Assembly: GCA_048538235.1 (NCBI GenBank)
Contig: JBLYPX010000001.1
Coordinates: 787,011 to 851,010, forward strand
Reading direction: 5' to 3'
DNA: 64,000 bases
From: Candidatus Komeilibacteria bacterium
Lineage (GTDB): Bacteria > Patescibacteriota > Patescibacteriia > UBA1558
Under the pieces are notes generated by a model. That model was not told the origin of the DNA. It made no database searches and saw nothing but the letters and a program-made list of their open reading frames with translations. A program made the translations under genes and the position numbers. Of the stretch, positions 7,263 to 18,569 are shown one piece after another (the stretch's first letter is position 1; the number at the start of each line of letters is the position of its first letter).

Positions 7263-7293
7263 AAAAACAGCTTATTATATAAAGCTGTTTTTT
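7263..7293 (-). terminator. intrinsic terminator AAAACAGCTT-ATTATATA-AAGCTGTTTT plus T-run, just downstream of the malic enzyme gene
   Basis: Perfect 10-bp stem with an 8-nt loop and U-tracts on both sides. Confidence 0.6.
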
Positions 7294-8467: not shown

Positions 8468-9682
8468 CTACTTCTTAGCTTTTATTAATCTATTCAAAGC
8501 AACCATGTATGAAGCTGTTCTTAAATTTACATTCTTTTTACCAGCTAATTTATCTATAGCTTTATATTCTTTTAAGATTTTATCTTTTAACTTCTTTAAA
8601 ACTTCCGCTCTTGTCCAATATTTATTCTTAGCATTCTGCACCATTTCAAAATATGAAACCATAACACCACCTGCATTAGCAAGAACATCTGGAACAACTA
8701 ATATTCCTTTTTCATACATAATTTTATCTGCGTCAGCTGTTGTTGGTCCATTAGCTAATTCTATAACTATATTGGCTTTAATTTTTTTAGCATTAGCCTT
8801 TGTTATTTGATTATCTAATGCTGCTGGAATTAGAACATCTGTATCTAATTCTAAAATCTCTTTATTAGAAATCTTCATTGTTCCTTTATATCCAACAACT
8901 GTCTTATTCTCTTCTTTGTATCTATTTAAGTGTTGAATGTTTACACCTCTTGGATCATAAATGCCACCTTTAGAATCTGACACTGCAATTACTTTATAGC
9001 CAGCATGAAAACATAAATAGGCCATAGTAGCTCCTGCATTACCAAAGCCTTGAATAACAACTCTAGGTTTTTTTAATTTAAACTTTGTAACTATATCTTT
9101 TAATATATAGAAGCCACCTTGTGCTGTAGCAACATCCCTACCTTTTGAACCACCTTTGTTGATTGGTTTACCAGTAAAAGTACCTTTGTTTTTTTCACCA
9201 GTTAACTTCATATACTCATCATTCATCCAAGCCATTATCTGTGGATTTGTATATACATCTGGTGCTGGTACGTCTATTTTGGGACCAATATTTTTATGCA
9301 TTGCTTTTGCCCAAGCTCTAGCTAGCCTTTCTAGTTCTGTGTTAGAAAACTTTTTCGGATCAACTTTAACGCCTCCTTTACCACCGCCAGTTGGTATATT
9401 AACAACAGCTGTTTTAATTGCCATCCACAAAGCTAAGGCTTTTACCTCATCAATATCTGCTGCTTGATGAAATCTAATTCCACCTTTATATGGACCCCTC
9501 CAATTATTATGCTGCACTCTGTAAGCTTCTAAAACTTTTTCTTTTCCATTATCTAATGTAATCTTTATTTTTTTCCTTAAAACTTTATTTGGTTTTTTAA
9601 GCTTAGACAAAAGACTGGGTTTAATACCCAGTTCGTTTGCCGCTACAGACAATTGTTTAATAGCATTATCTAAAGGATTCAT
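8468..9682 (-). CDS. gdhA: glutamate dehydrogenase (Glu/Leu/Phe/Val dehydrogenase family)
   Basis: 404 aa. Catalytic-lysine glycine-rich motif NIPTGGGKGGVKVDP. C-terminal NAD(P) Rossmann QGFGNAGATMA. Confidence 0.85.
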   Translation of the reverse strand: MNPLDNAIKQLSVAANELGIKPSLLSKLKKPNKVLRKKIKITLDNGKEKVLEAYRVQHNNWRGPYKGGIRFHQAADIDEVKALALWMAIKTAVVNIPTGGGKGGVKVDPKKFSNTELERLARAWAKAMHKNIGPKIDVPAPDVYTNPQIMAWMNDEYMKLTGEKNKGTFTGKPINKGGSKGRDVATAQGGFYILKDIVTKFKLKKPRVVIQGFGNAGATMAYLCFHAGYKVIAVSDSKGGIYDPRGVNIQHLNRYKEENKTVVGYKGTMKISNKEILELDTDVLIPAALDNQITKANAKKIKANIVIELANGPTTADADKIMYEKGILVVPDVLANAGGVMVSYFEMVQNAKNKYWTRAEVLKKLKDKILKEYKAIDKLAGKKNVNLRTASYMVALNRLIKAKK

Positions 9683-9999
9683 TATAGTGAGTTATCTATT
9701 CTTTCTTTCAAACTTCCTTTGTCTTGGTAGCCCACTAATTGATCTGCGATTTGACCACCTTTAAAAATAAACAAAGTTGGGATACTCATAACTTGAAACT
9801 GTCCTGCTGTTTGTTGATTCTCATCAACATTAAGTTTAACTATTTTAACCTTGCCTTCATATTCTTTAGCAAGCTCATCAATAATTGGACTCATCATTTT
9901 ACAAGGACCACACCACTCAGCATAAAAATCTACTAACACTGGTGTGTCTGCTTTTAGAACTTCGGCTTCGAAGTTTTGATCTGTTACAAATTCTGCCAT
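9682..9999 (-). CDS. trxA: thioredoxin
   Basis: 105 aa with WCGPCK active site. Confidence 0.9.
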   Translation of the reverse strand: MAEFVTDQNFEAEVLKADTPVLVDFYAEWCGPCKMMSPIIDELAKEYEGKVKIVKLNVDENQQTAGQFQVMSIPTLFIFKGGQIADQLVGYQDKGSLKERIDNSL

Positions 10000-10022
10000 A
10001 TTTTTTTTAAATTATTAATTAA

Positions 10023-10949
10023 TTATTCGTTTAAGTAAGTTATTACATCTAAAGCAGCCATACATCCTGAGCCAGCTGCTGTAATTGCTTGACGATATCT
10101 ATAGTCTGCCACATCTCCTCCAGCAAAAATACCTTTAACGCTTGTTTTGGTATTATTCTCAACCTCTAAATATCCCTTGCTATCTAATTTTACCACACCC
10201 TTCAAAAAATCTGTATTAGGCTTGTGACCAATTGCTATAAACAGACCATCTAGATCAATATCTTTTTCTTCATTTGTCTTGTTATTAATTGTTTTAACAC
10301 CAACAACTTTATCTTCTCCTAAAACCTCTTTAACCTCAGTATTAAATATAAACTCTACCTTAGGATTTTCCATAGCTCTTTCTTGCATAATCTTACTTGC
10401 TTTCATTTCTTCTTTACTCTTTCTAACAAGTACATAAACCTTCTTTGCAAAAGTTGTTAAGAAGTTTGCTTCTTCCATAGCAGCGTCACCAGCCCCAACT
10501 ACTGCTACTATTTTTTCTTTAAAGAAAAAACCATCACAAGTAGCACAAGCAGAAACTCCATGACCGCGTAATTTTTTTTCACTCTCTATATTAAGCCATT
10601 TAGCTGATGCACCAGTTGCAACTATAACAGACTTACCCATATATTCATTACTGTCCGTTTTAACAATAAATTCTTTATCTCCTTTGACTTCAATACTTAC
10701 CGCTGCTTCTGGCACTGTAACGGCTCCAAACTTTTCAGCCTGTTCTTTCATTTTCATCATAAGCTCTGGTCCCATTATTCCTTCTGGAAAACCAGGAAAG
10801 TTTTCTACATCTGTTGTGGTGGTTAATTGTCCACCAACTTCTCCGCCAAGAACAATTAAAGTTTTAAGTTCTGCTCTAGTTGTATATATTCCTGCTGAAT
10901 AACCAGCCGGTCCAGAACCTAAAATAATTACATCATATTTATCTTCCAT
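10023..10949 (-). CDS. trxB: thioredoxin-disulfide reductase
   Basis: 308 aa. GSGPAGYSAGIY FAD motif, redox-active CATCDG, GAGDAAMEEA NADPH motif. Confidence 0.9.
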   Translation of the reverse strand: MEDKYDVIILGSGPAGYSAGIYTTRAELKTLIVLGGEVGGQLTTTTDVENFPGFPEGIMGPELMMKMKEQAEKFGAVTVPEAAVSIEVKGDKEFIVKTDSNEYMGKSVIVATGASAKWLNIESEKKLRGHGVSACATCDGFFFKEKIVAVVGAGDAAMEEANFLTTFAKKVYVLVRKSKEEMKASKIMQERAMENPKVEFIFNTEVKEVLGEDKVVGVKTINNKTNEEKDIDLDGLFIAIGHKPNTDFLKGVVKLDSKGYLEVENNTKTSVKGIFAGGDVADYRYRQAITAAGSGCMAALDVITYLNE

Positions 10950-10953
10950 ATAT

Positions 10954-11202
10954 TTAATTTATTTTTATAAACCTAGTTAAAATATCTTGCAACTTCTTTT
11001 CATCATTCTTATTTATCCTTAAACAACTTGTTTCATCTTCCATAATAGCTTTTCCTAATGATGATAAAGCCCCTTTAATAGCTGCTAATTGATTAAAAAC
11101 CTCTAGACAATTTGTATTATTATCTAACATTTGTTCTAGCCCATTAAGCTGTCCTTTAATCTTAGAAACTCTTGCTTTTAGTTTTTTCTTATCCTTATTC
11201 AT
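10954..11202 (-). CDS. CsoR/RcnR/FrmR-family (DUF156) transcriptional repressor, two-Cys (CstR-like) variant
   Basis: 82 aa from the internal ATG at 11200-11202 (MNKDKKKLKARVSKIKGQLNGLEQMLDNNTNCLEVF...ETSCLRI...). Two Cys, no His at the W-X-Y-Z positions. The ORF-track 95-aa version (start 11241) would have to read through its own -35/-10 elements. Confidence 0.7.
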   Translation of the reverse strand: MNKDKKKLKARVSKIKGQLNGLEQMLDNNTNCLEVFNQLAAIKGALSSLGKAIMEDETSCLRINKNDEKKLQDILTRFIKIN

Positions 11203-11208
11203 AAATGT

Positions 11209-11237
11209 AGTATACCCCCCGGGGGTATATCTGTCAA
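11209..11237 (-). promoter_or_regulatory. consensus sigma70-type promoter (-35 TTGACA, 17-bp spacer, -10 TATACT, 6 nt, ATG) with an embedded 19-nt palindromic operator TATACCCCC-C-GGGGGTATA
   Basis: Minus-strand read: cTTGACAgatatacccccggggggTATACTacatttATG. The palindrome fills the spacer and overlaps the -10. It resembles the G/C-tract inverted-repeat operators of CsoR-family repressors. The transcript would be leaderless. Confidence 0.6.
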
Positions 11238-11240
11238 GCA

Positions 11241-11738
11241 TTACAACACTAGGAATATTATTATTAAGACAATACTTACAGCCATATCATATTTAGAAAA
11301 ATATCCTATTGGTCCTTTAAGATTAATTTTCTTCTTTGGATAAAAAGGATAATACTCTGCTCCATCTAAAGCATCCATAAGTAGGTGCAAAAAATATGCA
11401 ACTGTTATTATAACCCCAATTTGTAAATTAATTATCATAGCAATTACAGATAAAGCAACCGCAACAAAAATATTGTGTAGATAATTTCTTTGATCATCAA
11501 AAGGATCTTCCTGTTGAACAACTATATTAACAAACTTCTTCCAGTTTTTTAGATAGCCGTGTTTAAAAAAAGCATAGGCATGATCTGTATCAGGAAAAAT
11601 AGATGCTATTACAGCAGTAGTATAGTCTCCGGTTATTTTTCCAATAACCAGTCCAGCTGCGATGTGTGATGGTGCATACATAAATTGTATATTAATTTTA
11701 AGTACATCTATTATATGTCCTAGAGCAATATGACACAA
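11241..11738 (-). CDS. YdjM-family inner-membrane metal-dependent hydrolase-like protein (TTG start)
   Basis: 165 aa. N-terminal His pair (MCHIALGHI) and FPDTDH motif matching the LPDIDH motif of E. coli YdjM. Multi-TM. Confidence 0.55.
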   Translation of the reverse strand: MCHIALGHIIDVLKINIQFMYAPSHIAAGLVIGKITGDYTTAVIASIFPDTDHAYAFFKHGYLKNWKKFVNIVVQQEDPFDDQRNYLHNIFVAVALSVIAMIINLQIGVIITVAYFLHLLMDALDGAEYYPFYPKKKINLKGPIGYFSKYDMAVSIVLIIIFLVL

Positions 11739-11744
11739 ATAGAA

Positions 11745-11955
11745 AAAGCCATCACAATGTGATGGCTTAAAATTTGCTCATCAGCCTATCGCGATCAATA
11801 ATTATTACTTGACCACCAAGTGCGTCGGTGACGTTCTTTTGCCGTCTTAAACCTTAGCTTCTTGTCTGGGTATGAGATTCCCTTTAGGCAATAATGATTG
11901 TTCAAATTCAGATAAGTAGAATCAGATATGCACGTGTGCCTTTCAGCCAATGAGC
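11745..11955 (-). ncRNA. candidate sRNA or 5' leader upstream of the ydjM-like gene (about 200 nt, GC-enriched). It ends in hairpin GCCAUCAC-AUU-GUGAUGGC plus U-run at 11742-11766
   Basis: Minus-strand -10 TATAAT at 11962-11967 with palindrome 11974-11989 at the -35 position. Transcript GC is clearly above the local background. A terminator-like hairpin and U5 sit immediately before the TTG start of the downstream gene. Identity unknown. Confidence 0.3.
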
Positions 11956-11973
11956 AATATAATTATACTACAA

Positions 11974-11989
11974 TGTTCCACGTGGAACA
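11974..11989. repeat. perfect 16-bp palindrome TGTTCCACGTGGAACA (copy 1 of a TGTTC-N6-GAACA family)
   Basis: Directly read. Located after the tRNA-Ala terminator on the minus strand and at the -35 position of the minus-strand promoter reading into 11745-11955. Confidence 0.8.
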
Positions 11990-12012
11990 AAAAAACAACC
12001 CTTAAGGTTGTT

Positions 12013-12089
<77 letters not shown>

Positions 12090-12133
12090 GTGAGCAATAT
12101 TTTATATTATATATTAAAAATTATCAATATTAA

Positions 12134-12149
12134 TGTTCTACGTGGAACA
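12134..12149. repeat. palindrome copy 2, TGTTCTACGTGGAACA (one mismatch)
   Basis: Lies between divergent promoters: 3 nt upstream of the -35 of the plus-strand ncRNA promoter and about 45 nt upstream of tRNA-Ala. Confidence 0.7.
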
Positions 12150-12151
12150 AT

Positions 12152-12180
12152 TTGACAAGTAGATTTTATTAATATAATAT
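12152..12180 (+). promoter_or_regulatory. promoter for plus-strand ncRNA: -35 TTGACA (12152-12157), 17 bp, -10 TAATAT (12175-12180)
   Basis: Read directly. An alternative -10 TATAAT lies 2 nt upstream. Confidence 0.45.
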
Positions 12181-12186
12181 ATTCTT

Positions 12187-12500
12187 AATGGAAAATGAGA
12201 GGTTTGGCGAACGCTGTTGTAGCGGGTGCAGCTAATGAGGCTATCTGTCTCAAATGCGCAAATGCTCATCAGGGTTGGTTCAGATAAGATGCCGCTTCAG
12301 AGCGAGTTATGCAGAGACAAGGGTGGAATATTAAATTGTTTTGCAGCAAGGCGATATTCTATGCAACTCCCAAGTTAATGCTCAATTCAGAGTCTGAATA
12401 CCTTATTTCCTTAAGGGAATGAGTCTGAACAGGAGAGCCTAAACGCTATAACAAAACCTTCTCTAATTAACCCCTGTCGCAACGTCGATGGGGGTTTTTT
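12187..12500 (+). ncRNA. candidate structured ncRNA of about 300 nt with its own promoter and a strong intrinsic terminator (12471-12500). Identity unresolved
   Basis: No ORF of 60 aa or more. GC is clearly above flanking DNA. 5' GAGAGGUUUGG can pair with 3' AAACCUUCUC (closing helix). Terminator CCCCUGUCG-CAACGU-CGAUGGGGG plus U6. It lacks the RNase P P4 motifs (GGAAAGUCC), the tmRNA CCA-ending tRNA-like end, and a clean SRP GGAA/AGCAG helix 8. Confidence 0.45.
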
Positions 12501-12512
12501 GATTATCTATTA

Positions 12513-12528
12513 TGTTCCACGTGGAACA
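12513..12528. repeat. palindrome copy 3, TGTTCCACGTGGAACA (perfect)
   Basis: Follows the tRNA-Arg terminator (ACACC-UUAUU-GGUGU plus U7) on the minus strand. Same module layout as copy 1: tRNA-CCA, hairpin, U7, palindrome. Confidence 0.8.
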
Positions 12529-12553
12529 AAAAAACACCAATAAGGTGTTATTC

Positions 12554-12628
12554 TGGTGCCCCCGGTAGGAATCGAACCTACATCTAGACGTTAGGAGTGT
12601 CTTGTTCTATCCATTGAACTACAGGGGC
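12554..12628 (-). tRNA. tRNA-Arg (anticodon CCU), CCA encoded
   Basis: RC reads GCCCCTGTAGTTCAATGGATAGAACAAGACACTCCTAACGTCTAGATGTAGGTTCGATTCCTACCGGGGGCACCA. Anticodon loop CU-CCU-AA. T-arm GTAGG/CCTAC. A31-C39 mismatch in the anticodon stem. Confidence 0.85.
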
Positions 12629-12651
12629 TAGGGTATAATCTACTAAAAAAA

Positions 12652-12667
12652 TGCTCTATATAGAACA
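12652..12667. repeat. palindrome variant TGCTCTATATAGAACA (TGTTC-N6-GAACA family, AT core, one mismatch) upstream of tRNA-Arg
   Basis: Read directly. Located in the putative tRNA-Arg promoter region. Confidence 0.45.
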
Positions 12668-12927
12668 TTTTACATAATATTGTATATAATATTGCTAATA
12701 TTAGCCATTAATTTGTGTCGTAAAATGTTATATGGACTATTAAATTATATAAATTGCCTAATTACAACAAATAAAACTACAAATATTACAGCTAAAACCA
12801 TTATTAGTCTTAAATCCTTTTTGTAATAAATTTCATTCATTTAATAAATTGTTATTTTTTTAGTGTTTATACTATAATATATTCACTTAGATTTGTCTAA
12901 GGTAAATTAATCAATATATAGAAAATT

Positions 12928-13323
12928 ATGTTTAAAGAAGAAAACCCAGCTAAAGATATAAAATCTGCTGAAACAATTATAGGCCCCTCTGTTCGTGTTG
13001 AGGGTGATTTTATTAGTGATAACGACATTATTATTGACGGTGAGGTGGTTGGAAACATAAGTACCGCCAATAATCTAAGAATTGGCAGAGGAGCTGTTGT
13101 AAAAGCTAAAATTGATGCTAAAAATGCATATATAGCTGGTAAAGTAACAGGCAATGTTACTGTTAAGGACAAATTAAAGATTACAGACTCAGCAACTATT
13201 AAGGGTAATGTTACGGCTAAACTATTAGATGTAGAACAAGGTGCTTCACTTGTTGGTCAATGTAAAGTTGATCCAGGTAATGAAGTAAAACCTGAACCTA
13301 AGCCAGAAAAAACTACTAAATAA
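12928..13323 (+). CDS. bactofilin (CcmA-like polymer-forming cytoskeletal protein)
   Basis: 131 aa. Beta-helical repeat signature IIGPSVRVEGDFISDNDIIIDGEVVGNISTANNLRIGRGAVVKAKIDAKNAYIAGKVTGNVTVKDKLKI. Confidence 0.8.
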   Translation: MFKEENPAKDIKSAETIIGPSVRVEGDFISDNDIIIDGEVVGNISTANNLRIGRGAVVKAKIDAKNAYIAGKVTGNVTVKDKLKITDSATIKGNVTAKLLDVEQGASLVGQCKVDPGNEVKPEPKPEKTTK

Positions 13324-14135: not shown

Positions 14136-14882
14136 TTACTGAACAACTTCTATGGGGTTGTCTTTTTTCTTCTTTGAAAATATTAAGTATTGTTGTAAAA
14201 CTGTTAAGACAATAGATATTAACCAGTAAAGAACCAAGCCGCTTGGCAATGACACTCCAATAAATACTGTGAATAGCGGCATCATATAAACCATTTGTTT
14301 GCCCATAGCATCTGCCATATCATTTCCTTTTTTCTTATCTTTAACTTCTCCCTTCTTACCTTTAATATTCATTATCATCTTTGATTGTACATACTGACCA
14401 ATACCGGCAAGCACTGCCAAAATTGTATTTGGTTCTGCCAAATTTATTAATCCCAAGAACATATTATTTATAGTTCCAGGATTTTGTACAAAAGAATATA
14501 AAACATCAAACGAACCATTTGAAAGTCCTAATCTAAAAACTTGGTAAACTGCAATTAAAATTGGTAGCTGAATAAATAATGGTAAACAAGAAGACGCTGG
14601 ATTTATTTTCTCTCTTTTATAAAGCTCCATAGTTGCTCTACCAAAAGCTTCCTTATCATCTTTATGCTTTTCTTTTAATTCATCGATTTGAGGTTTTAAC
14701 TCTTGAAGTTTTTTCTGTGACTCAATTGAACTTTTTGATAGGGGATATAAAACTAACCTTACAAGAATAGTTATAAGAATAATTGCAAAACCAATATCTT
14801 TAATAGGAATAATATTATAAAAAAATATTAATACATTAAATAATGGTTCATATAAAATTGTATTGTATAAAGAGACAAGCAT
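14136..14882 (-). CDS. yidC: membrane protein insertase YidC (short form)
   Basis: 248 aa. LVRLVLYPLSKSSIESQKKLQELKPQIDELKEKHKDDKEAFGRATMELYKREKINPASSCLP, typical of YidC/Oxa1. Confidence 0.85.
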   Translation of the reverse strand: MLVSLYNTILYEPLFNVLIFFYNIIPIKDIGFAIILITILVRLVLYPLSKSSIESQKKLQELKPQIDELKEKHKDDKEAFGRATMELYKREKINPASSCLPLFIQLPILIAVYQVFRLGLSNGSFDVLYSFVQNPGTINNMFLGLINLAEPNTILAVLAGIGQYVQSKMIMNIKGKKGEVKDKKKGNDMADAMGKQMVYMMPLFTVFIGVSLPSGLVLYWLISIVLTVLQQYLIFSKKKKDNPIEVVQ

Positions 14883-14884
14883 AG

Positions 14885-15133
14885 TTATTTATTTTTTTTA
14901 ATTATAGGGTCATAACCGCCTTTTGACAACGGGTTACAACGCAACACTCTTAAACAAGTATATAAAGAGCCTTTTATAGCTCCATGTTCTTTAATTGATT
15001 GATGTCCATATTCTGAACAGGTTGGGTAATAGCGACACGCCCCAAAAGGATATAACATTTTTAATATTCCTGTATCAGGAGATATATATTTTTGATACTT
15101 CTTAATAATACTCAAAATACCTTTTTTAATCAT
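14885..15133 (-). CDS. yidD: membrane protein insertion efficiency factor YidD
   Basis: 82 aa. GACRYYPTCSEYGHQSIKEHG matches the YidD CxYxPxCSxY signature. Confidence 0.85.
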   Translation of the reverse strand: MIKKGILSIIKKYQKYISPDTGILKMLYPFGACRYYPTCSEYGHQSIKEHGAIKGSLYTCLRVLRCNPLSKGGYDPIIKKNK

Positions 15134-15467
15134 TTTTAAGAATCTTTAATTCTTTTAAACCTGCTGTTATTTGGTCTTGAATTGAAGAAAAGTCTGCATT
15201 TTCTACGCCTTTTTTGGCTATTATGACAAAATCCCACTGTTTTCCAATGTTTTTAGCATGCTTAGCCACAATACTACGAGCTCTTCTTTTAAATTTATTC
15301 CTATCTACTGCTAATTTTAGGTTTTTTTTAGAAACAATAACAGTATATCTATATTCCTTGTTTTCATTGTTTTTAACTGCTTTTAAAGTTAAATACTTTG
15401 AAAAAAAGGGCCTTCCCTTTAAGGCCCGTATAATTTCTTTTTCTTTGGATAGACTATTTCTTCTCAT
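15126..15467 (-). CDS. rnpA: ribonuclease P protein component
   Basis: 113 aa, basic. [19 protein letters not shown] motif. Conserved rpmH-rnpA-yidD-yidC order. Confidence 0.85.
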
Positions 15468-15606
15468 TACTAGCAGAAATTTTAGCGCGTCCTTTTGCTC
15501 TTCTTCTTTTTAGAGTGTTTTTACCGCCTACGCTTGCTTGGCGAGCTCTGAATCCGTGCTTTTTTAATCTATGCTTTTTCTTTGGTTGGTAAGTTCTCTT
15601 TGGCAT
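15454..15606 (-). CDS. rpmH: 50S ribosomal protein L34
   Basis: Not in the ORF track (under 60 aa). Reads [50 protein letters not shown]. Overlaps the rnpA start by 14 nt. Confidence 0.85.
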
Positions 15607-15823
15607 ATTTTTAGTATATTAGTAAAAAATTTTGCAACGGTAGTGTAACAACTATTTACCTTCTTGTAAAGACCCTTTCCTTGATAGATTTTTTATCCAT
15701 ATATTATTAACAGGTTGTAAACAAATTGTTCTTTTTTAGTGTGTTCTTTAAATCACCCCTTTGTGATAAAATTATTATCGTCACGTGTTTTACTCTTTCA
15801 TTATTAATTAAATAAAAAAATAA
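15607..15823. promoter_or_regulatory. rpmH-dnaA intergenic region with DnaA-box-like sites (oriC / dnaA promoter region)
   Basis: TTATCCATA at 15693-15701 and TGTGATAA (TTATCACA on the other strand) at 15761-15768. AT-rich. Confidence 0.5.
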
Positions 15824-17209
15824 ATGCTAACAAATCAATTGTGGGACGCTGTACTTGGCGAACTAGAACTTACTATTTCAAAAGCAAACTTTACTACATG
15901 GTTTAAAAATACTTTTATCCATTCTGTTGACGACAATAGTATTGTAGTTGGGGTTCCTAATGCTTTTACAAAAGCTTGGCTTGAAAACAAGTACCACGAT
16001 CACATCTTAACTGCTTTAAACAAAAGTAGTCAGGGAAAAATTGATTCTGTTGTATATAAGGTTGCATCAAACAAAGAGCAAAACCCAGAGCAAATTAAAA
16101 ATCATGTAGCTAGTGCTAATGGAGAGAAAGAAGAGGTTGAAAACACTTCTACCGTAGAAGAACCTGTAAGGCCTGCACAAAATAATTTTAATTTAAACCC
16201 AAAGTATACTTTTGAAACATTTATTGTTGGTAAGGGTAATGATTTGGCTACAGCTGCTGCTAATGCAGTGGTTAATAAACCAGGGGAAGTATATAATCCC
16301 TTGTTTTTATATGGTGGTGTTGGTCTTGGTAAGACTCATTTATTACAAGCTATCGGAAATGCTCTTCTTGCTAAGGATCCTAAAATTAAAATTGTATATT
16401 TAAATACTGAAAAATTTGTTAATGATTTTATTAACTCCATTAAGAAAGGAACGACTGATGAGTTAAAAAAATATTACCGTACTGTTGATGTTCTTTTAAT
16501 AGATGATATTCAATTTATTGCTGGCAAAGAACAAACTCAAGAAGAATTCTTTCACACCTTTAACGAATTACACCAAAAGAATAAACAAATTGTAATGACG
16601 TCAGATAGACCACCAAAGGCTATTGCAGAGGTTGAGCAACGTTTAATATCTAGGTTTGAGTGGGGAATGATTGCAGATATTGGTGTGCCAGATATGGAAA
16701 CAAGATACGCGATTCTAGAATCTAAATGTCATGAAAAGGGTATTTCTCTATCACCAGATATAATTTCTTATGTGGCAGAGAATATACAAAATAATATTAG
16801 AGAATTAGAAGGCGCATTAAATAGAATAATAGCCTATCAACAGTTAAATAACGCTGAAATTACGCTTGAATCGGTTCAAAATGTATTAGGCTCATTATCT
16901 TTAAGTGCAAAGAAAAGTGGTTTAACTCCTAAAAAAATAGCTGCTAAAGTTGCTGACTTCTATGATATTGCTGTAAGTGATTTAATGGGTAGTAGTAGAA
17001 GAAAAGAGTTAGTCTTTCCAAGACAAATAACTATGTGGTTGTTAAGAGAAGAATTAAAAAGCTCTTACCCATCTATTGGACAAGAGCTTGGTGGAAGAGA
17101 TCATACTACTGCTATACACGCTTGTAATAAAATTACTGAACAAATTAAGAACGATAGTAAAACAAAAAGTGATATTGAATTAATAAGACAACAACTTTAC
17201 GCTTCATAA
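15824..17209 (+). CDS. dnaA: chromosomal replication initiator DnaA
   Basis: 461 aa. Walker A GGVGLGKTHLLQAIGN, sensor motifs, C-terminal DNA-binding domain (RDHTTAIHA). Confidence 0.95.
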   Translation: MLTNQLWDAVLGELELTISKANFTTWFKNTFIHSVDDNSIVVGVPNAFTKAWLENKYHDHILTALNKSSQGKIDSVVYKVASNKEQNPEQIKNHVASANGEKEEVENTSTVEEPVRPAQNNFNLNPKYTFETFIVGKGNDLATAAANAVVNKPGEVYNPLFLYGGVGLGKTHLLQAIGNALLAKDPKIKIVYLNTEKFVNDFINSIKKGTTDELKKYYRTVDVLLIDDIQFIAGKEQTQEEFFHTFNELHQKNKQIVMTSDRPPKAIAEVEQRLISRFEWGMIADIGVPDMETRYAILESKCHEKGISLSPDIISYVAENIQNNIRELEGALNRIIAYQQLNNAEITLESVQNVLGSLSLSAKKSGLTPKKIAAKVADFYDIAVSDLMGSSRRKELVFPRQITMWLLREELKSSYPSIGQELGGRDHTTAIHACNKITEQIKNDSKTKSDIELIRQQLYAS

Positions 17210-17468
17210 ATTGTTAATAAGGTTGTTTATTAAAAACTAATCTTAAGTTAACAACCACACCTAATGTGTTAATAAAAAAACGGTTATACACAGACATAGA
17301 ATTTAAAGTAAAACTTAATAACAGATAATAAAATTTTCCCTAACTGTTTGTTAACTTTCAAAACCATCTCTAAACCGTTTGTACATAATATAATAATAGA
17401 CCTTATCAACATATTAACAGCCCCTATTATTATAACTAAGTAAAATATAATTAATTAATAATATAGTA
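17210..17468. promoter_or_regulatory. dnaA-dnaN intergenic AT-rich region with DnaA-box-like 9-mers (candidate oriC / unwinding element)
   Basis: TTATACACA at 17284-17292 and TTATCAACA at 17407-17415. Long AT runs. Confidence 0.5.
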
Positions 17469-18569
17469 ATGAAATTTATATGCACAAGAGAAAATTTGAA
17501 TAATGGTTTAAGCGTTGTAAACCATTTAGCTTCTCACAATGCAAACCTACCAATTCTAAATAATGTTTTAGTAGATGCTAAAGACGGAATAATAACTTTA
17601 GCTACAACAAATTTAGAAATTGGGATTAAGGTTGTAGTGAGAGGGAAAATAGAAACAGAAGGTTCTTACACTGTGCCAGCTCGTTTATTTTCAGATTTTG
17701 TTTCATTACTGCCAAATGAAAACGTAGATATAGATTTAGAAACAGATGGTTTAAATGTACGTTGTAAAAATTCACAAACACAAATTAAAGGAATGCTGTC
17801 AGAGGATTATCCTTTAATTCCAGATGTTAGTTCAGATAAAAAGGTTTCCATAGATATGCAAGTTTTTAAAGAAACTTTAGGACAAACAGTTTTTGCAGCA
17901 ACGCTAGATGATAATAGACCAGAAATTAGTGGTGTGTTTTTTAACTTCAAAGGTCAAGATCTTGTGGTGGCAGCAACAGACAGTTATCGTTTGGCTGAAA
18001 AGAGAATTAAAGTAGAAAATTCTATTGATCAAAAAGTTATTATACCTTTAAAAACTCTACAAGAACTTAGTAGAATTTTAGCAAACACTACAGAAAAGAA
18101 AATAGAAATATATTTAAATGAGAACCAAATAGCTTTTAGTTGTAATAATATAGTTTTAACTTCGCGTTTAATTGATGGAAATTACCCAGATTATGAACAA
18201 ATTATACCCACGGATGAAAAGACAGTAACAAAGGTTGGTGTTAGTGAGTTAGTTAAAGCTATAAAAGGTGCTTCATTGTTCTGTAAAACAGGGATAAATG
18301 ATATAAAAATGACTATTATACCTTCAAAAAATGAAGTGGTTATCCTGTCAACAAACAGTGGATTAGGAGAAAATATTACCAACATAAAGGCAGATATTAA
18401 GGGCGAAGAGGTGGAAATAGTCTTTAATTACCGCTATTTACTTGATGGCTTAAATAACTTACAATCAGAGCAGGTAATAATAAAAACCTCCAATCAAGGT
18501 GCTCCAGGGGTTTTTGTGCCGGACAACAAAGAAGGATACCTATACATTGTGATGCCAATCCGGCAATAA
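17469..18569 (+). CDS. dnaN: DNA polymerase III beta sliding clamp
   Basis: 366 aa, three-domain beta-clamp pattern. N-terminal MKFICTRENLNNGLSVVNHLAS. Confidence 0.9.
   Translation: MKFICTRENLNNGLSVVNHLASHNANLPILNNVLVDAKDGIITLATTNLEIGIKVVVRGKIETEGSYTVPARLFSDFVSLLPNENVDIDLETDGLNVRCKNSQTQIKGMLSEDYPLIPDVSSDKKVSIDMQVFKETLGQTVFAATLDDNRPEISGVFFNFKGQDLVVAATDSYRLAEKRIKVENSIDQKVIIPLKTLQELSRILANTTEKKIEIYLNENQIAFSCNNIVLTSRLIDGNYPDYEQIIPTDEKTVTKVGVSELVKAIKGASLFCKTGINDIKMTIIPSKNEVVILSTNSGLGENITNIKADIKGEEVEIVFNYRYLLDGLNNLQSEQVIIKTSNQGAPGVFVPDNKEGYLYIVMPIRQ

Follow-up and report, generated by a model that had tools for sequence, protein, structure and literature searches.

What does a CsoR/RcnR-family repressor sense when it stands at the head of a thioredoxin operon? 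The question is raised by a stretch of 64,000 nucleotides (nt) from a Candidatus Komeilibacteria bacterium (Patescibacteriota; assembly GCA_048538235.1, contig JBLYPX010000001.1, positions 787,011 to 851,010 of the forward strand), which as a whole is called the window here. In it a gene for a small CsoR/RcnR-family protein is followed by the genes for thioredoxin reductase (trxB), thioredoxin (trxA), glutamate dehydrogenase (gdh) and malic enzyme, and a palindrome with G/C tracts is found in the promoter of the regulator (Table 1). To our knowledge, the Patescibacteria, with their tiny genomes, have very few recognisable transcription factors, and the regulation of their stress defence is almost wholly undescribed. 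We consider it probable that the protein is an autoregulated repressor of the thioredoxin system, which operates as a dithiol/disulfide switch and resembles CstR in its action. The class of mechanism would be a familiar one; what appears to be new is a thioredoxin-linked branch of the family with a Glu at position Y of the W-X-Y-Z fingerprint. A regulatory circuit that can be tested directly is a rarity in this uncultivated phylum.

The association with thioredoxin was followed through related loci. A genome scan yielded 6 loci; a metagenome scan with a narrow alignment yielded 16, 4 of which belonged to the Glu class and one of which (L022) was new. The comparison covered 14 distinct loci with Glu at Y, i.e. 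the window, L001, L005, L006, L010, L011, L015-L021 and L022. In 14 of 14, trxA and/or trxB was located directly 3' of the regulator on the same strand at a distance of at most 59 nt (in L016 it is trxA alone, and in L022 the contig breaks off within trxB). The gene order was trxB-trxA in the clade of the window, trxA-trxB elsewhere and regulator-gdh-trxA-trxB in L015, and the flanking genes varied from locus to locus. All named sources of these loci are Patescibacteria (Komeilibacteria, Kerfeldbacteria, Woesebacteria, Saccharibacteria and 'Patescibacteria group'). The C-H-H and C-H-C relatives recovered in the same scan (L026-L031) had no trx neighbours. A preliminary description of the window had proposed a redox-responsive function, and this reading is strongly reinforced by the adjacency of regulator and trx genes in all 14 loci. 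It had further proposed that genes for thiol homeostasis and for NAD(P)H generation are controlled together. The former part stood: trxA and trxB are the only constant partners. The latter did not hold in general, as the NAD(P)H-supply genes are lineage-variable; gdh is in or beside the operon in 5 of the 14 loci (window, L005, L015, L020, L021) and malic enzyme likewise in 2 (window, L001). The recurrence of gdh suggests an enzyme that feeds thioredoxin reductase in these fermentative organisms.

Two of the gdh loci are of interest in their own right. In L020 (5108-7267) an aminotransferase gene is inserted between trxB and gdh, and in L015 (3765-5102) gdh lies between the regulator and trxA. 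These layouts suggest a recurring module on the thioredoxin operon of Patescibacteria which leads from amino acids to reducing power. A homolog search with the Saccharibacteria protein returned just 2 proteins and gave no evidence of a cultured strain that carries the regulator. A search of the literature found no paper which ties a CsoR-family protein to a thioredoxin operon or to Patescibacteria, an absence which is no proof in itself.

In the window the five genes are all on the minus strand, and the array looks like a single operon. The gaps measure 4 nt between the regulator and trxB, 23 nt between trxB and trxA, and 1 nt between gdh and the malic enzyme gene; the start of gdh overlaps the stop of trxA by 1 nt (TAATG). 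The identities of the four downstream genes, as given in the preliminary description, were confirmed by Pfam and NCBIfam matches, and TrxB and TrxA score above their equivalog cut-offs. For the malic enzyme, the top NCBIfam match was the NADP-dependent malic enzyme subfamily with a score below the cut-off of that model. The 82-amino acid (aa) regulator is identical to the protein annotated by NCBI. A mechanical open reading frame (ORF) of 95 aa which begins at 11241 was rejected as the true start; it runs through promoter and operator, and the downstream ATG is the start in the homologs as well as in the NCBI annotation. The intergenic stretch between an upstream ydjM-like gene and the regulator comprises about 38 nt in generally AT-rich DNA (window G+C about 33%). 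The promoter region reads, 5' to 3', TTGACA-GATATACCCCCGGGGGG-TATACT-ACATTT-ATG, which agrees with the promoter and start codon described earlier. Because the ATG at 11202 follows only 6 nt after the -10 hexamer, the operon mRNA is predicted to be leaderless.

Is the palindrome in this promoter an operator? Both 9-nt arms of TATACCCCC-N-GGGGGTATA are perfect (duplex sequence GATATACCCCCGGGGGGTATACT). It had been said to fill the promoter spacer. The palindrome was indeed present; its position is somewhat different: 15 of the 17 spacer bases belong to it and, in addition, the first 4 bases of the -10 hexamer. A search for further copies, which had been recommended, was carried out in the 64 kb. 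With up to 3 mismatches allowed the palindrome was the only match (0.00 expected), and the pattern ACCCC-N3-GGGGT with 1 mismatch did not reveal a site beyond it in the window. The designation as a regulon was therefore overstated, given a single operator within the searched 64 kb of an 860-kb genome; one autoregulated operon is the part of that claim which stood. When the looser ATAC-N9-GTAT was used, 3 extra matches were noted in the window (23850, 26987 and 62834), i.e. 4 were seen against 1.04 expected, and at least 4 occurred in 3 of 100 shuffles. The three are located within ORFs and have no G/C tracts, and were therefore treated as chance.

Tan et al. identified a TAC-X9-GTA dyad around G/C tracts as the element common to CsoR operators (PMC3902906). 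The site in the window fits this rule as TAC-CCCCGGGGG-GTA in 11211-11229. It also fits the consensus of streptomycete CsoR operators, ATATACCCCTNAGGGGTATAT (PMC3902906), and the cst operator of S. mitis, ATATACCCTTATGGGGTATAT (PMC8643695). Operators were then compared across 13 distinct related loci of 102 kb in total, the regulators of which are 30-77% identical to the window protein. ATAC-N9-GTAT was present 20-42 nt 5' of the regulator start in 12 of the 13 (13 of 14 with the window included). Within the 102 kb it occurred 13 times, 12 times at the promoter position. The arms are kept as sequence, mostly as ATACCCC/GGGGTAT, without compensatory change. Two layouts were observed. In the window, L001, L017, L018 and L019 the box is in the spacer and over the -10 of TTGACA-17-TATAxT, and the ATG is 5-6 nt past the -10. 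In L006, L010, L011, L015, L020 and L022 it is directly 3' of the -10, across the expected transcription start at about +1. Both layouts would imply steric repression. A scan with ATAC-N9-GTAT uncovered no second operator in any related locus; therefore, a single controlled promoter appears to drive the regulator together with its targets as one transcript. Taken as a whole, the comparison supports the earlier claim of a G/C-tract operator of the CsoR type, and the palindrome is a predicted operator inside the regulator's own promoter.

The 82-aa protein is a member of the CsoR/RcnR superfamily and has its three-helix fold. PF02583 (CsoR/RcnR, DUF156) matched residues 4-74 with 64.6 bits (gathering cut-off 22.8; E=1.1e-17). 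An AlphaFold2 model computed with 48 homologs had a mean predicted local distance difference test score of 85.9 and helices at residues 5-27, 32-60 and 65-81. In this model Cys32 and Cys60 are at opposite ends of helix 2, X at the N-terminal and Z at the C-terminal end. The best 18 Foldseek matches in the PDB were all InrS, FrmR, CsoR or CstR structures. In S. lividans CsoR an RLXR motif and Q81 matter for DNA binding (PMC3902906). The respective positions, R-L-x-R in helix 1 and Gln in helix 2, are filled by R11-V-S-K14 and Q38 in the window protein. Across the 92 members of the Glu class introduced below, the first Arg is present in 66%, the second Arg or Lys in 94% and the Gln in 100%.

To which group of the superfamily does the protein belong? 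HMMER alignments to InrS, Geobacillus CsoR, CsoR-Gz and FrmR placed Cys32 at X and Cys60 at Z. Glu57 is opposite the Y His of InrS, Geobacillus CsoR and CsoR-Gz, and the stretch from Y to Z is one residue shorter (E-x-x-C versus H-x-x-x-C). The N-terminus, MNKDKKK, has no His at W, which distinguishes it from RcnR and InrS, and with Asn as residue 2 it lacks the Pro2 of FrmR. Thus, the alignment which had been suggested as a check yielded neither the CsoR nor the RcnR ligand set; together with the PF02583 match it bore out the assignment to the CsoR family, the two Cys at X and Z and the lack of a His at Y. The NCBIfam scores stayed far below the respective cut-offs for RcnR (61.2 versus 138), FrmR (48.6 versus 133) and RicR (33 versus 175). 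The profile scores were 50.9 bits for InrS, 49.4 for CsoR, 44 for FrmR and 40.4 for SpCstR (7mq1). The protein had been called CstR-like. This describes its two-Cys pattern and its likely chemistry, but apparently not its membership, as sulfide and sulfite detoxification genes are missing from the 14 loci, the match to SpCstR is below those to InrS and CsoR, and Y is an invariant Glu. The best reading is that the protein falls outside the CstR, CsoR, RcnR and FrmR groups and represents a branch of the CsoR family which is undescribed, has Glu at Y and is linked to thioredoxin in Patescibacteria. As a side observation, several homologs of 170-200 aa (P0017, P0019, P0033, P0041, P0042, P0067, P0077 and P0078) have two tandem PF02583 domains per chain. 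They would be covalently linked 'dimers', and some have His-rich N-termini.

The sensor residues were then read off from 262 homologs which had been collected in exhaustive and indexed searches and aligned to the profile. Glu was at Y in 92 of the 262, and in 95% of these Z was Cys. Among close homologs C32, E57 and C60 are invariant. Within the Glu class, the Cys is at X alone in 73 members, at the N-terminus and not at X in 15, at both places in 3 and at neither in 1. In the 15, the N-terminal Cys is 12-16 residues ahead of a conserved GQ motif, so the relocated Cys belongs to the N-terminal tail or to the first part of helix 1, close to where RcnR and InrS have their W ligand. By clustering, 12 of the 15 form one clade, and two or three scattered cases exist besides. 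In this clade X is free to vary (S, A, Y, V, P, T) and the N-terminal Cys is retained. L017-L019 encode such N-terminal-Cys regulators, yet have trxA-trxB operons with the same operator. A Fisher test of the Cys relocation gave p = 2e-13, which overstates independence because most cases belong to one clade; the pattern was used qualitatively. The distance from Glu to Cys varies as well, with E-x2-C in the clade of the window and E-x3-C elsewhere, and some members have CC or CxxC at Z. So two nearby thiols appear to be required and no single fixed geometry. Because two thiols and a carboxylate are kept despite this shifting geometry, a dithiol/disulfide (or polysulfide) switch fits better than a defined metal site. 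The residue ahead of the X Cys is Asn31 in the window protein, Asp in 58% of the Glu class and Tyr in 73% of the His-class homologs; in the Cu(I) sensors this Tyr is in the second shell and part of the allosteric network.

How might such a switch operate? The repressor would presumably be a tetramer, i.e. a dimer of dimers, as in the rest of the family. In the reduced state it would bind the ATAC-N9-GTAT palindrome with its G/C tract in the spacer and -10 region and keep RNA polymerase off its own operon. The sensor would consist of two thiols from neighbouring subunits, Cys32 where helix 2 begins in one and Cys60' where helix 2 ends in the other, with Glu57 beside them. This geometry is proposed because the family has an intersubunit X-Z' site, and the chemistry because of the precedent of CstR. 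Oxidation of the thiols, either to an intersubunit disulfide or, with reactive sulfur species, to a tri- or tetrasulfide as in CstR, would release the repressor. More thioredoxin reductase and thioredoxin would then be produced, and in the window also glutamate dehydrogenase and malic enzyme, which would use glutamate and malate to regenerate NAD(P)H. A negative feedback loop would be closed by the induced thioredoxin system, which probably returns the repressor to its reduced state. As inducer, peroxide or disulfide stress would fit equally well as persulfide.

A more specific version of this mechanism is conceivable, although we regard it as tentative and rather doubtful in its entirety. According to it, the protein would be a 'thioredoxin homeostat', the first dedicated redox regulator to be recognised in Patescibacteria and the representative of a distinct (C)-C/x-E-C branch of CsoR proteins. 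A load of oxidants or reactive sulfur species would lead to the intersubunit disulfide, and TrxA from the same transcript would reduce it specifically. In this way the repressor would sense the redox state of the thioredoxin/NAD(P)H pool instead of one toxin and co-regulate the supply of reducing power from glutamate and malate. Glu57 would act as a base or as a hydrogen-bond partner which tunes the Z Cys.

Several points weigh against a dithiol/disulfide switch in general. The signal from Cys relocation comes mainly from one clade plus about 2-3 scattered cases. The synteny among the nearest relatives (L001, L005, L006 and L022) is partly inherited and not independent. Cys32 and Cys60 are spaced by 28 residues, compared with 29 in the family. 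Two Cys and an invariant carboxylate could also form a metal site, and in a pure thiol switch the invariant Glu57 has no explained role.

Many Patescibacteria inhabit anoxic, often sulfidic groundwater and sediment, and this counts in favour of a CstR-type sensor which is specific for persulfides. Reactive sulfur species would be the inducer, and thioredoxin would reduce protein persulfides and low-molecular-weight persulfides. The x-C-x-C two-Cys pattern corresponds to that in the CstR clusters, and the operator is nearly identical to that of S. mitis cst (PMC8643695). Persulfides are reported to be reduced by thioredoxin-like proteins in S. aureus (PMC6196236), and sulfane sulfur is reported to induce trx and grx genes through OxyR in E. 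coli (PMC6831875). Still, genes for rhodanese, CoA-persulfide reductase, SQR, PDO and TauE were present in 0 of the 14 loci, SpCstR is no nearer to the protein than InrS, CsoR or FrmR are, and at Y an invariant Glu takes the place of Asn55 of SpCstR. We therefore think it unlikely that persulfides are the specific signal. Less likely still would be a metal sensor, in which the X or N-terminal Cys, Glu at Y and Cys at Z form a Cys2-Glu site for thiophilic Zn, Cd, Co, Ni or Cu(I) and the trx genes are induced because of thiol damage by the metal. The metal ligands of the family do sit at W, X, Y and Z, an invariant Y carboxylate with two Cys resembles a ligand set, the N-terminal Cys variants mimic the N-terminal W ligand of RcnR and InrS, and the closest similarities in NCBIfam and the PDB were RcnR and InrS. 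Against this, a gene for a metal efflux pump, chaperone or importer was adjacent in 0 of the 14 loci, the neighbours always being trx. Just three candidate ligands are conserved, His is absent, and so is the Tyr which belongs to the allosteric network of the Cu(I) sensors. The shift of a ligand from helix 2 to the N-terminal tail, the alternation of E-x2-C and E-x3-C and the extra CC or CxxC are difficult to square with a defined coordination geometry.

Alkylation of a Cys instead of its oxidation, as in an FrmR-type sensor of aldehydes, other electrophiles or quinones, would be quite improbable. FrmR was among the top matches in sequence and structure, and JGI tags several homologs as 'FrmR family'. 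However, the P-C-H-x signature is absent (residue 2 is Asn, Y is Glu), the NCBIfam FrmR score is far below its cut-off (see above), no formaldehyde dehydrogenase or esterase gene was adjacent in the loci examined, and alkylation at a single site would leave the requirement for a second Cys unexplained. A last possibility concerns the palindrome and not the protein. It might form an RNA hairpin, either as terminator of the ydjM-like gene or as an attenuator, and its link to the regulator would be coincidental. Indeed it is a G/C-rich inverted repeat 11 nt past the ydjM stop, and a stem of 8 bp is possible. A fold of -11.2 kcal/mol is no better than that of shuffled sequences (z = -0.69), a T-run is missing and the terminator scan made no call at this place. 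The box is also present in loci without an upstream ydjM-like gene (L010, L011, L015-L020), and it matches the published CsoR operator consensus (PMC3902906). The terminator or attenuator reading was rejected. As the arms are conserved in sequence and not via compensatory changes, and the RNA hairpin is unremarkable, a protein-binding site is far likelier than an RNA element; we give the latter hardly any credence. A thiol switch at a CsoR-type operator remains the explanation we favour.

How does this putative switch compare with known systems? In CstR, a dithiol sensor of the CsoR family, di-, tri- and tetrasulfides are formed between protomers, upon which the repressor dissociates from an operator very much like the one described here (PMC8643695). 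Fakhoury et al. (2021) assigned the CstR groups of S. aureus, E. faecalis and S. pneumoniae/S. mitis to clusters 4 and 10 of a sequence similarity network and validated them by adjacent genes for sulfide and sulfite detoxification; several clusters of the family are uncharacterised (PMC8643695). The window protein shares with CstR the superfamily, the fold, Cys at X and Z and the lack of a His at Y, and a non-metal thiol chemistry is the best fit for it. The S. mitis operator and that of the window, ATATACCCCCGGGGGGTATAC, are of a nearly identical type, and in both cases a Cys modification would make the repressor let go, as proposed here. In contrast, the targets in the window are trxB and trxA with or without gdh and malic enzyme, compared with rhodaneses, CoA-persulfide reductase, SQR, PDO and TauE for CstR. 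The Y residue is an invariant Glu here and Asn or variable in CstR; X and Z are 28 residues apart in the clade of the window compared with 29, and some Glu-Y members have the first Cys at the N-terminus. The similarity to SpCstR is not above that to InrS, CsoR and FrmR, and the hosts are Patescibacteria compared with Firmicutes and Actinobacteria.

With the Cu(I)-responsive CsoR proteins of M. tuberculosis, B. subtilis, S. lividans and Geobacillus the window protein has in common the fold, the RxxR/K and Q contacts, the TAC-X9-GTA G/C-tract operator over the promoter and the position of the regulator as first gene of its own operon. The differences are Glu at Y in place of the His of the x-C-H-C ligand set, the absence of the Tyr before the X Cys, and the absence of adjacent copA or copZ in the window or any of the 14 loci. 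RcnR and InrS differ by their H-C-H-H and H-C-H-C sets, since here His is missing at W and Y, and FrmR differs by P-C-H-x with the free amine of Pro2 and Cys35. Cys-oxidation sensors which induce thioredoxin and are then re-reduced are sigmaR-RsrA (Streptomyces trxBA), OxyR (trxC, grxA), Spx and RexT, a member of the ArsR family which acts on Nostoc trxA2 (PMC8960804). The proposed logic of negative feedback via thioredoxin is the same. Their folds and DNA sites are unrelated; here, in a minimal genome, the sensor would be a CsoR-family repressor which shares its transcript with trxB and trxA. TTHA1953 of the Thermus thermophilus sox cluster is likewise a non-metal CsoR-family repressor, and its first repressed gene encodes the thioredoxin-like SoxW; it differs in its operator TACNNTACNNNNGTANNGTA, which has no G/C tract, in its sulfur-oxidation regulon and in its clade (PMC10318464).

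For Patescibacteria, the module of regulator, operator and targets is a concrete, testable circuit, being linked to trx in 14 of 14 loci and having an operator that can be predicted by eye. The CsoR field would gain a residue signature, i.e. a Glu at Y combined with a Cys that may sit either at X or at the N-terminus. The thioredoxin system with its NAD(P)H-generating dehydrogenases would be a new output of the family beside Cu, Ni/Co, formaldehyde and persulfide. As to the geometry which a thiol switch in the CsoR family needs, a ready-made experiment exists in the natural 'Cys relocation' variants.

Table 1. Features of the predicted thioredoxin operon and its control region (window coordinates).
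Feature	Position	Strand	Details
-35 hexamer TTGACA	11232..11237	-	11/12 consensus positions for the -35/-10 pair; best promoter-like site in the 6 kb scanned
-10 hexamer TATACT	11209..11214	-	17-nt spacer from -35; ATG 6 nt further on
Predicted operator palindrome	11211..11229		TATACCCCC-N-GGGGGTATA, 19 bp; core ATAC-N9-GTAT 11212-11228
CsoR/RcnR-family repressor (putative), 82 aa	10954..11202	-	PF02583; W-X-Y-Z = x-Cys32-Glu57-Cys60
trxB, thioredoxin-disulfide reductase, 308 aa	10023..10949	-	TIGR01292 388.4 versus cut-off 343; PF07992; CATC active site
trxA, thioredoxin, 105 aa	9682..9999	-	TIGR01068 134.5 versus cut-off 96.8; PF00085; WCGPC motif
gdh, glutamate dehydrogenase, 404 aa	8468..9682	-	PF00208 and PF02812
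Malic enzyme, 387 aa	7303..8466	-	PF00390 and PF03949
Terminator-like hairpin closing the five-gene operon	7263..7292	-	11-bp stem, then T-rich tail

The gene upstream of the operon (11241-11738, minus strand) encodes a YdjM-family membrane protein (PF04307), and its stop codon is directly 5' of the -35 hexamer of the trx operon. Its true start is probably an ATG near 11681 because the homologs have 146-149 aa. It is syntenic only in the close clade of the window (L001, L005, L006) and is outside the conserved module. A neighbourhood typical of oriC was noted at 14136-18569, where the minus strand carries rpmH (15454-15606), rnpA, yidD and yidC, and the plus strand carries dnaA (15824-17209) and dnaN (17469-18569). 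The GC skew turns from negative to positive at about 12 kb of the window. From this flip and the dnaA/dnaN region it follows that the trx operon is just about 4.5 kb from the likely oriC, and the arrangement beside the origin region is kept in L001, L005 and L006.

In the same area, tRNA-Ala(GGC) at 12013-12089 and tRNA-Arg(CCT) at 12554-12628 flank a candidate element at 12152-12496 (plus strand). About 290 nt separate its promoter-like TTGACA-17-TAATAT (12152-12180) from a strong terminator with an 11-bp stem (12469-12496). The sole ORF of this stretch has 50 aa (12226-12378), and an Rfam search of the whole window and of 11700-12950 yielded nothing above threshold except tRNAs. The element could be a small RNA or a small-protein gene.

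The thioredoxin reductases of the operons differ at the position of the NADPH-binding motif, the canonical form of which we take to be HRRDxxRA as in the E. coli enzyme. Residues at about 165-185 of the window TrxB (gene at 10023-10949) read LVRKSKEEMKAS. TrxB of L011 (4718-5656) has the canonical IHRRDELRAS, and that of L010 (1669-2607) has LYRGEKLPGE. The cofactor preference for NADPH, NADH or ferredoxin may vary among the operons, which would bear on the co-encoding of gdh and malic enzyme. Finally, distant CsoR-like genes were seen in metagenome-assembled genomes of Anaerolineae (L012, 1-1281; L014, 2954-4249). The encoded proteins have Cys, Tyr and Cys at X, Y and Z, and the genes are immediately preceded by two thioredoxin-like genes on the same strand. 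Here, in Chloroflexi, there may be a second tie of His-less two-Cys CsoR-family proteins to thioredoxins which is independent of the first.

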